In this document: in pieces, positions 29,502 to 30,875 of the stretch | Layout of the letters: each line of letters starts with the position of its first letter | Position numbering within the stretch: the stretch's first letter is position 1 | Source of the DNA: Escherichia coli | GTDB lineage: Bacteria > Pseudomonadota > Gammaproteobacteria > Enterobacterales > Enterobacteriaceae | Reading direction: 5' to 3' (one strand) | DNA: 64,000 nt | Assembly (NCBI RefSeq): GCF_003334255.1 | Contig: NZ_QOWU01000025.1 | Notes under the pieces: model-generated | What the model was told of the DNA's origin: nothing | Seen by the model: the letters and a program-made list of their open reading frames with translations, nothing else | Database searches by the model: none | Program-made: the position numbers and the translations under genes

Positions 29502-30293
29502 TCATTGAAAACTGCTTTTAGAACTTGATACAACGGGACTAGTCACAACAGGACTATTCTCAACGGGATCATCCTCAGAGGAACTATCATCAAAGTCATC
29601 ATCCATAAATAAAATATCATCGAATGGTGCCACGCCCGTGATGAGTTTTATTTTATTATTACGATCAGTCAATACTCCACTTAAACCGTTTTCGCTCACA
29701 GGTTTTAATGATTTTTCATTACTCTTGTTGTAAGCAGGCGCATTAAAAATACACGGAGTATCAACATCAAACAATGACGTTCCCCAGTTCACATATTGAA
29801 TATCATAGTTACTGAAGTTCTGTCCAGAAAAGAAGCACCCCTTAAAATCCAATCCACGTAAATTATATAAACCACCCTCTTCTTTTTGGAGAGTAATGTT
29901 AATTTTGGCTATCTCCCGGACATCATCGCCATTTTTGTATTTGAATACCGTTTCAAGATGTTCTCCAGACAGCTTGACTTCAGGAAATAATTTGAAATCA
30001 AAGCCTATATTATTATGTGTCAACGTAGATGAACAAAAAATGGAAAAAGCTTGCAGTGCTGAATTATAGCTATCGATTTTATCTTGAGGCTGAGCTCTTG
30101 GTAAAAACTTATAGCAACACTCATAAAAATTAAACAGAAGCTCTGAAGACCTTGTATTTTTATCAAATAATACCCCCTTGAACTCATTCACAAACGCATC
30201 TTTTTTTTCTTGAATATCTATGGGGTGTTCCTTTGACTCTGACAAAGATGAAATCTCATCTATTTTGTTTTCATATGAATTACGTGATTCCAT
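29502..30293 (-). CDS. ypjB: Hypothetical protein (263 aa), AT-rich; pentapeptide-repeat-like segment and acidic/Ser-rich C-terminal tail; probable C-terminal part of a TAG-interrupted longer frame
   Basis: ORF track protein MESRNSYENKIDEISSLSESKEHP...; no convincing SD before its ATG; same frame as upstream ypjC, separated by one TAG and 33 sense codons; name assigned from synteny (ypjA-pinH-ypjB-ypjC-ileY) and size. Confidence 0.6.
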   Translation of the reverse strand: MESRNSYENKIDEISSLSESKEHPIDIQEKKDAFVNEFKGVLFDKNTRSSELLFNFYECCYKFLPRAQPQDKIDSYNSALQAFSIFCSSTLTHNNIGFDFKLFPEVKLSGEHLETVFKYKNGDDVREIAKINITLQKEEGGLYNLRGLDFKGCFFSGQNFSNYDIQYVNWGTSLFDVDTPCIFNAPAYNKSNEKSLKPVSENGLSGVLTDRNNKIKLITGVAPFDDILFMDDDFDDSSSEDDPVENSPVVTSPVVSSSKSSFQ

Positions 30294-30392
30294 ACAGACA
30301 TTTGGCGGCGTTTCTAAAATAACACTACGCGTACTACTTGGCTTAAGTAAACCAACATGAAAATCACTTTTTCTTATATTATCGAAAAGGTT

Positions 30393-30875
30393 CTATTCAT
30401 TTCTTTTAGCGCATTCAAAAAACTGATCGGCATTATTTTTATTCGATAATTTTTTAGTTTCAGAAAACACATTTTCATTGTTTTCCAGCTTTAGTTTAAT
30501 GAGAAGATTTTCCCAGACCTGCTTGCTTAAACATATTACGTCAGGCTCACCAGAACTAACTAACTCGTGATTATTATTAAAGTGTACGTTGAATACCTTT
30601 AAGTTATTTTCACCAACTTCATATTTAATACGTTTTAATTGTTCTCCAGCTCCCATAATGACAAAGGCGTTGCCTTCTTGATATATACATTCAGACATCA
30701 TTTTTTGTAAAGTTTCAAGAGCACCGCGATACGTCTCTGATGCAGCTTCCTTACAAATTAATTTTAAAATACTATGAGCTAGTAGCTCCATGTGTTTAGA
30801 AGATTTATTTTCATTATAACTTCCACTACCCAAAACTGCGCCAGCGTTAAATCCGTTGCTTTTACTAACTAACAT
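30393..30875 (-). CDS. ypjC: Hypothetical protein (160 aa), AT-rich; probable N-terminal part of the ypjC|ypjB frame, ends at an in-frame TAG
   Basis: ORF track protein MLVSKSNGFNAGAVLGSGSYNENKSSKHMELLAHSILK...; good GAGGA RBS 7 nt upstream of the ATG; terminates at TAG (plus-strand cta at 30393-30395). Confidence 0.55.
   Translation of the reverse strand: MLVSKSNGFNAGAVLGSGSYNENKSSKHMELLAHSILKLICKEAASETYRGALETLQKMMSECIYQEGNAFVIMGAGEQLKRIKYEVGENNLKVFNVHFNNNHELVSSGEPDVICLSKQVWENLLIKLKLENNENVFSETKKLSNKNNADQFFECAKRNE

Follow-up and report, generated by a model that had tools for sequence, protein, structure and literature searches.

The closest described counterparts of the locus analysed here are the intact members of the NCBIfam family NF050179 ('Ecoli_YpjCB'), such as WP_000906744.1 of Escherichia coli O157:H7 (449 aa) and WP_047657028.1 of strain S21 (457 aa). 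Their genes share a locus with the copy in our window, a 64,000-nucleotide stretch of E. coli contig NZ_QOWU01000025.1. The curated record of K-12 MG1655 (NC_000913.3) divides the same interval into two separate ordinary coding sequences, ypjB (b2649) and ypjC (b2650; together L027 2639-4012). A second point of comparison is ygaQ (b4462), which lies 1.4 kb off in the same low-GC island and also consists of a single ancestral frame that was hit by point lesions and left ORF fragments behind. It differs in having three in-frame stops and in being flagged as a pseudogene in MG1655, whereas ypjCB has one lesion and is annotated there as two live genes. An in-frame stop within a long open frame is shared, too, with programmed recoding or readthrough, as in UGA-selenocysteine decoding in fdhF or suppression by supE44. 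Unlike the fdhF stop, that of ypjCB is UAG rather than UGA, is not conserved, and is accompanied by no known recoding element.

The window copy resembles the YpjCB family closely, with 80-96% identity in an 18-sequence alignment. Its fused translation matched NF050179 end to end and without a break across the ypjC/ypjB junction (residues 1-449 against profile positions 1-465 of 465; 945.7 bits, E 4e-285, above the cutoff of 650). It differs from the intact genes by a TAG in place of CAG at codon 161, which deprives it of the uninterrupted coding sequence of a functional YpjCB member, and by a private glycine at residue 12.

Translation of the minus strand from 29499 to 30920 yielded a single 457-codon frame with a final TGA (29502..30875, minus) and one internal TAG at 30393-30395. 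The frame begins MLVSK...AKRNE (ATG...AAA AGA AAT GAA), meets the stop, continues through NLFDNIRKSDFHVGLLKPSSTRSVILETPPNVC, and resumes as MESRN...SSFQ (ATG GAA TCA...TTT CAA TGA). It comprises 160 codons, the TAG, 33 sense codons and 263 codons, for a total of 457 positions. The ORF listing gives the same two pieces in a shared frame, at 30393..30875 (160 aa) and 29502..30293 (263 aa), and this agreement bears out the earlier note, which had described ypjC and ypjB as one 457-residue reading frame interrupted by one amber codon. In MG1655 terms, the N-terminal fragment (30396..30875, minus; 160 codons) is ypjC, the C-terminal fragment (29502..30293, minus; 263 codons plus TGA) is ypjB, and the linker between them (30294..30392, minus) has no annotation. 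The regional G+C content of 34% predicts a stop in 8% of codons, and on base composition the chance of 296 open codons beyond the TAG is about 2e-11. The remaining five frames contain 16-80 stops each, and 2000 shuffled sequences averaged 36 stops, none having fewer than 18. The open frame is not due to chance.

Translation signals are distributed unevenly over this frame. A Shine-Dalgarno-like GAGGA (30883..30887, minus) precedes the ypjC ATG by 7 nt, as the earlier note had read it, and no such motif was found in the 25 nt ahead of the ypjB ATG (TTTAGAAACGCCGCCAAATGTCTGT), again in line with that reading. The ypjB ORF begins at the earliest ATG, GTG or TTG past the TAG; the ORF listing shows none of these in frame within the 99-nt, 33-codon gap. 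Near ypjC, a promoter scan returned matches no more frequently than in shuffled sequence. A GC-rich hairpin with a 10-pair stem about 120 nt past the stop codon (29354..29381, unstranded) is a candidate terminator, identified in a consensus scan as a pattern match only.

In 5.8 billion proteins searched, 437 relatives were identified. Among the best 120 of the 437 almost all were full-length, mostly 449-492 aa with a few shorter or partial, and all of these 120 had E. coli or Enterobacteriaceae as source names. Homologues spanning the junction therefore exist, and where the window has its stop they have glutamine: Gln161 was invariant in 17 of 17 intact homologues of 449-492 aa when these were aligned with the query. 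The DNA agrees, with CAG in 15 of 16 sampled non-TAG alleles and CAA in the other, that of O157:H7. In the latter strain the locus bears an unbroken gene for 449 residues, which reads GAA CAA ACC against GAA TAG AAC in the window; O157-type alleles stop 8 codons sooner than the window copy. The amino acids of the linker are conserved, with no variation across 18 sequences at 16 of the 34 positions from 161 to 194, and Met195, the annotated ypjB start, lies inside the intact proteins and is invariant in them. The outcomes that the earlier note had named as refuting, a lack of junction-spanning homologues or an unconserved linker, were therefore not borne out. Because Gln161 is invariant and the non-TAG alleles carry CAG or CAA, the lesion is a single CAG-to-TAG transition.

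Public annotation already recognises much of this. PGAP calls the same interval a pseudogene with an internal stop in H5, FELIX_MS510 and K-12 GM4792, and in RefSeq genomes that it annotated the product is given as 'YpjCB family protein' (ypjCB) or as 'DUF5507 domain-containing protein', with the remark 'internal stop'. K-12 ypjC was entered as 'Pseudogene' in the table of one paper (PMC5811629), and a literature search found no relevant paper on ypjCB, DUF5507 or DUF5508. The observation is thus correct but an ordinary rediscovery, the ypjCB pseudogene being already on public record, and the TAG is an ordinary pseudogene lesion, not a candidate recoding site. Pfam matches the two halves separately, DUF5507 to residues 1-160 (model positions 1-160 of 160) and DUF5508 to residues 195-457 (positions 1-263 of 263).

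We consider it very probable that ypjC and ypjB are ORF remnants of an ancestral ypjCB, now a plain nonsense pseudogene. One C-to-T transition turned the glutamine codon CAG at position 161 into TAG. Ribosomes loaded at the good ypjC ribosome-binding site would terminate after 160 residues, and the 296 downstream codons would remain essentially untranslated because they lack a Shine-Dalgarno sequence and offer no start codon until 99 nt further on. The ypjB part would thus not be translated to any appreciable degree, and the function of the full-length protein has presumably been lost. The TAG appears to have arisen once, recently and on one allele, and would represent one of several independent routes by which a weakly constrained, low-GC, E. 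coli-restricted gene is being lost. Frame continuity, the ancestral glutamine, the one near-clonal TAG allele, the separate lesions elsewhere and the weak constraint are shown by the data; termination at the TAG, the lack of appreciable ypjB translation and the loss of function are inferred. Some activity may persist in the 160-residue fragment or in its transcript, given the phenotype reported for a ypjC deletion. Against the pseudogene reading stands the MG1655 record, which keeps two ordinary coding sequences.

The distribution of the TAG was examined in 5426 complete E. coli genomes, in which the locus was present in 3082 and absent from 2344 at megablast sensitivity. We used 41-mers centred on codon 161, a length at which the megablast word of 28 exact bases forces an exact central match. 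The TAG-centred 41-mer occurred in 1428 genomes, or about 46% of the 3082 locus carriers, K-12 included, and its CAG counterpart with identical flanks in 388. Matches to the TAG 41-mer were always single-copy and chromosomal, in isolates from humans, pigs, sheep and water as well as in laboratory K-12. Across 1374 nt, nine sampled TAG alleles showed only 1-3 substitutions relative to the window, and the nearest intact allele, that of S21 (L006), matched the window at every one of the 893 nt past the TAG. The TAG thus sits on one near-clonal allele, and the mutation is young relative to the divergence of alleles. Given such youth, an open ypjB frame would be the neutral expectation and is not evidence of function.

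In this region the window and K-12 MG1655 are collinear and differ by 8 substitutions over 8 kb, of which one falls within ypjCB. At 30842 the plus strand has C where MG1655 has T, making codon 12 GGC (Gly12) rather than AGC (Ser12). Ser12 was also found in K-12 GM4792 and every other sampled allele, and the window is accordingly K-12-like but not identical to MG1655. As to species range, one genome per species was scanned for an exact 39-mer, a search that is weak on divergent orthologues, and only an E. coli-like contig from a metagenome-assembled genome was found. The contig DEQI01000374.1 (L026, 2799 bp), assigned to 'Planococcaceae bacterium UBA3370', is 99.93% identical to the window ypjCB, TAG included; the contig is almost certainly E. 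coli contamination of the metagenome bin.

Other alleles carry lesions of their own. The most frequent was a deletion of C in GAAAACAAAATAG at gene nt 609, for which an exact 81-mer matched 282 genomes; most genomes of the CAG-bearing, K-12-like group carry it. The census of intact and broken copies outside the TAG and nt 609 deletion classes covered 11 sampled genomes, and the lesions seen among the alleles included a change of Glu154 to TAA (L004, L008, L009), a stop at codon 119 (L015), a 1-bp deletion at nt 348 (L016) and an IS1 insertion within ypjCB of H1. An A8 run at gene nt 661-668 (30208..30215, minus) is a secondary site of 1-bp deletion, having lost one A (nt 668) in L008 and in the TAG allele L020; single-base indels in homopolymers, found in a few assemblies, could be sequencing errors. 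Intactness was sampled from rows evenly spaced down the identity ranking of locus matches, in which 1 of 5 sampled rows at 95-99% identity and 8 of 10 at 80-95% were intact. From this small sample we estimate that roughly a third of locus carriers are intact. The tRNA gene adjacent to ypjCB is reported to have been lost by IS-mediated deletion in E. coli W and B (PMC3032704). The lesions show that ypjCB has been broken independently in several lineages, and these inactivations, together with losses of the locus in other lineages, indicate a dispensable gene, as expected of a nonsense pseudogene.

Even where it is intact, ypjCB is weakly constrained. Nei-Gojobori comparisons of ten open alleles, with the window included after removal of the TAG codon, gave dN/dS values of 0.5-1.1 for all pairs but one. 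By region, the ratio stood at about 0.5 for residues 231-430 and at 0.8 for residues 1-160, against about 1.2 both for residues 161-230 and for the C-terminal tail. The exceptional pair was the window and S21 (dN/dS 3.9), in which 24 of 26 differences fell within the first 227 nt, almost all of them non-synonymous, with two sites downstream. The N-terminus is hypervariable among alleles (codons 1-50, 30726..30875, minus; pN/pS about 1.2 in codons 1-30), and the packing of the window/S21 differences into the first 227 nt points to mosaic, recombinant alleles. The linker between the Pfam domains is also polymorphic in length (residues 189-210, window approximately 30250..30300, minus; loci L013-L019). 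Alleles L013-L018 carry an insertion of 105 nt (35 codons) in it, and the 474-aa proteins P0056 and P0062 a tandem duplication of 25 residues (PPNVCME...).

What the intact protein might do was approached by similarity searches and structure prediction. Comparison of the fused protein with 1.84 billion representative sequences by phmmer recovered its own family and short fragments, with no outside relative; the sole outside match, to the PA14-repeat protein P0164 (E 6e-4), was rejected as fortuitous, resting on 'CYYSDQNFTN'. A profile search of the PDB yielded nothing (best E 1.1), the PADLOC defence library gave no match, and PHROGs matched only the uncharacterised family phrog_30093. Since tblastn against 50,697 phage records returned no match, ypjCB is not evidently phage-borne. 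The full-length AlphaFold2 model was unusable (mean pLDDT 39.6), and Foldseek of that model against the PDB gave TM-scores of 0.08-0.12. The C-terminal tail (residues 418-457; 29505..29624, minus) is predicted to be disordered (pLDDT 22-32) and proved acidic and rich in Ser and Pro in the translation, as noted earlier.

The earlier note had also pointed to a pentapeptide-repeat-like stretch, and this claim fared less well. Residues 337-371 (29763..29867, minus) can be written as seven units, YNLRG-LDFKG-CFFSG-QNFSN-YDIQY-VNWGT-SLFDV, and are the most conserved part of the protein and of the ypjCB DNA. Pentapeptide-repeat proteins (PF00805) include the type III effectors PipB2 of Salmonella and EspX of E. 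coli. The likeness to them lies in the five-residue units with a hydrophobic centre, mostly preceded by D or N, and in the Ser/Asn-rich N-terminus of YpjCB and the position of its gene in a low-GC island. A Pfam scan at E <= 10 returned DUF5507, DUF5508 and a chance-level Ku_PK_bind match without PF00805, and the fold comparison gave no backing. We treat the resemblance as a lead.

A reading that would assign ypjCB a more active part is that YpjCB is an E. coli-restricted factor for interaction with hosts or competitors, under antagonistic selection and not simply neglected, with the retained 160-residue YpjC of K-12-type strains still functional in its own right; it might, for example, be a secreted effector with a short pentapeptide-like beta-helix. 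The hypervariable N-terminus, mosaic alleles, linker length polymorphism and repeated inactivation are all compatible with it, as are control by H-NS and Hha and the mixed-biofilm phenotype of a ypjC deletion. In K-12, a sigma-70 promoter and an H-NS site were reported 5' of ypjC (PMC3946193), as were Hha binding and Hha-dependent induction of ypjC (PMC2408971). Deletion of ypjC from MG1655 was easy and had a modest mixed-biofilm phenotype, and in enteroaggregative strain 55989 the deletion was not obtained after repeated tries (PMC3646849). These K-12 reports all concern the ypjC transcript or the N-terminal fragment. We regard the reading of YpjCB as a host- or competitor-interaction factor as improbable.

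A further alternative takes ypjC and ypjB for real genes that are translated separately, in agreement with the MG1655 annotation. Each has a protein accession in NC_000913.3 and a Pfam family of its own, and ypjC has a Shine-Dalgarno sequence, the reported sigma-70 promoter and H-NS site, Hha dependence and a deletion phenotype. The Pfam models, however, are exactly as long as the K-12 fragments, at 160 and 263 positions; the cited support is limited to the ypjC transcript or fragment; and the 33 codons that this annotation leaves between the genes belong, in intact homologues, to conserved coding sequence. A separate ypjB gene was rejected: it lacks start signals, its Met is internal to longer proteins and conserved in them, and the 1.84 billion representative proteins hold only the fused family and short fragments, with no stand-alone ypjB family. 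Two independent genes thus seem very improbable to us.

Readthrough of the TAG, whether programmed, leaky or through an amber suppressor, would allow full-length protein still to be made, and the fully open frame past the stop speaks in its favour. The suppressor supE44 (glnV44) puts glutamine in at UAG, which is the ancestral residue here, and C600-type strains (H9) carry the TAG allele; supE44 derivatives of K-12 such as these would be expected to make some authentic YpjCB if ypjCB is transcribed, which would be a curiosity of laboratory strains and says nothing about the locus itself. The TAG, however, is not conserved: it is confined to one near-clonal allele, and every divergent allele reads CAG or CAA at this codon. 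The open downstream frame is accounted for by the recent origin of the mutation, and at least one TAG allele has since suffered a frameshift (L020). Programmed readthrough was rejected because the stop is not conserved, and E. coli is not known to have programmed UAG readthrough or a pyrrolysine system. We judge continued production of the full-length protein by any of these routes to be very unlikely, although some low-level readthrough may occur. Sequencing or assembly error was dismissed outright, since the exact TAG 41-mer is present, in one copy each, in 1428 independently sequenced complete genomes.

The residual value of the nonsense-pseudogene assignment lies in the records that do not yet reflect it, as the MG1655 record and Pfam still keep both fragments as independent entities. 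Where knock-out collections, proteomics databases or projects on stop-codon recoding use the MG1655 annotation, the fragments are treated as separate genes, and studies of the YpjCB protein are best done on an intact allele, for example that of O157:H7 or strain S21. The biological weight is small: ypjCB adds one more inactivated accessory gene to a low-GC island of E. coli K-12 that is in decay.

That island is a stretch of 33-40% G+C from about 29.5 to 34.5 kb of the window. On one side ypjCB is flanked by ypjA, an autotransporter gene, and a fragment of a recombinase gene (pinH), and on the other by a tRNA gene of the ileY type (31626-31701) and a broken gene of the alpha-amylase family; the island, with ypjCB and ygaQ, lies on both sides of the tRNA. 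The alpha-amylase-family gene is ygaQ (32261..34513, plus), which forms one frame with stops at codons 111, 343 and 661, is flagged as a pseudogene in PGAP genomes as well as in MG1655, and is intact (2253 nt) in strain M6. ARAGORN assigned the tRNA (31626..31701, minus) to Met on its CAT anticodon, and RefSeq has it as tRNA-Ile(CAU), ileY, of the lysidine-modified type. The pinH remnant (28929..29168, minus) lies between ypjA and ypjCB, is described by PGAP as 'missing N-terminus and C-terminus', and is the third decayed gene within the same few kilobases.
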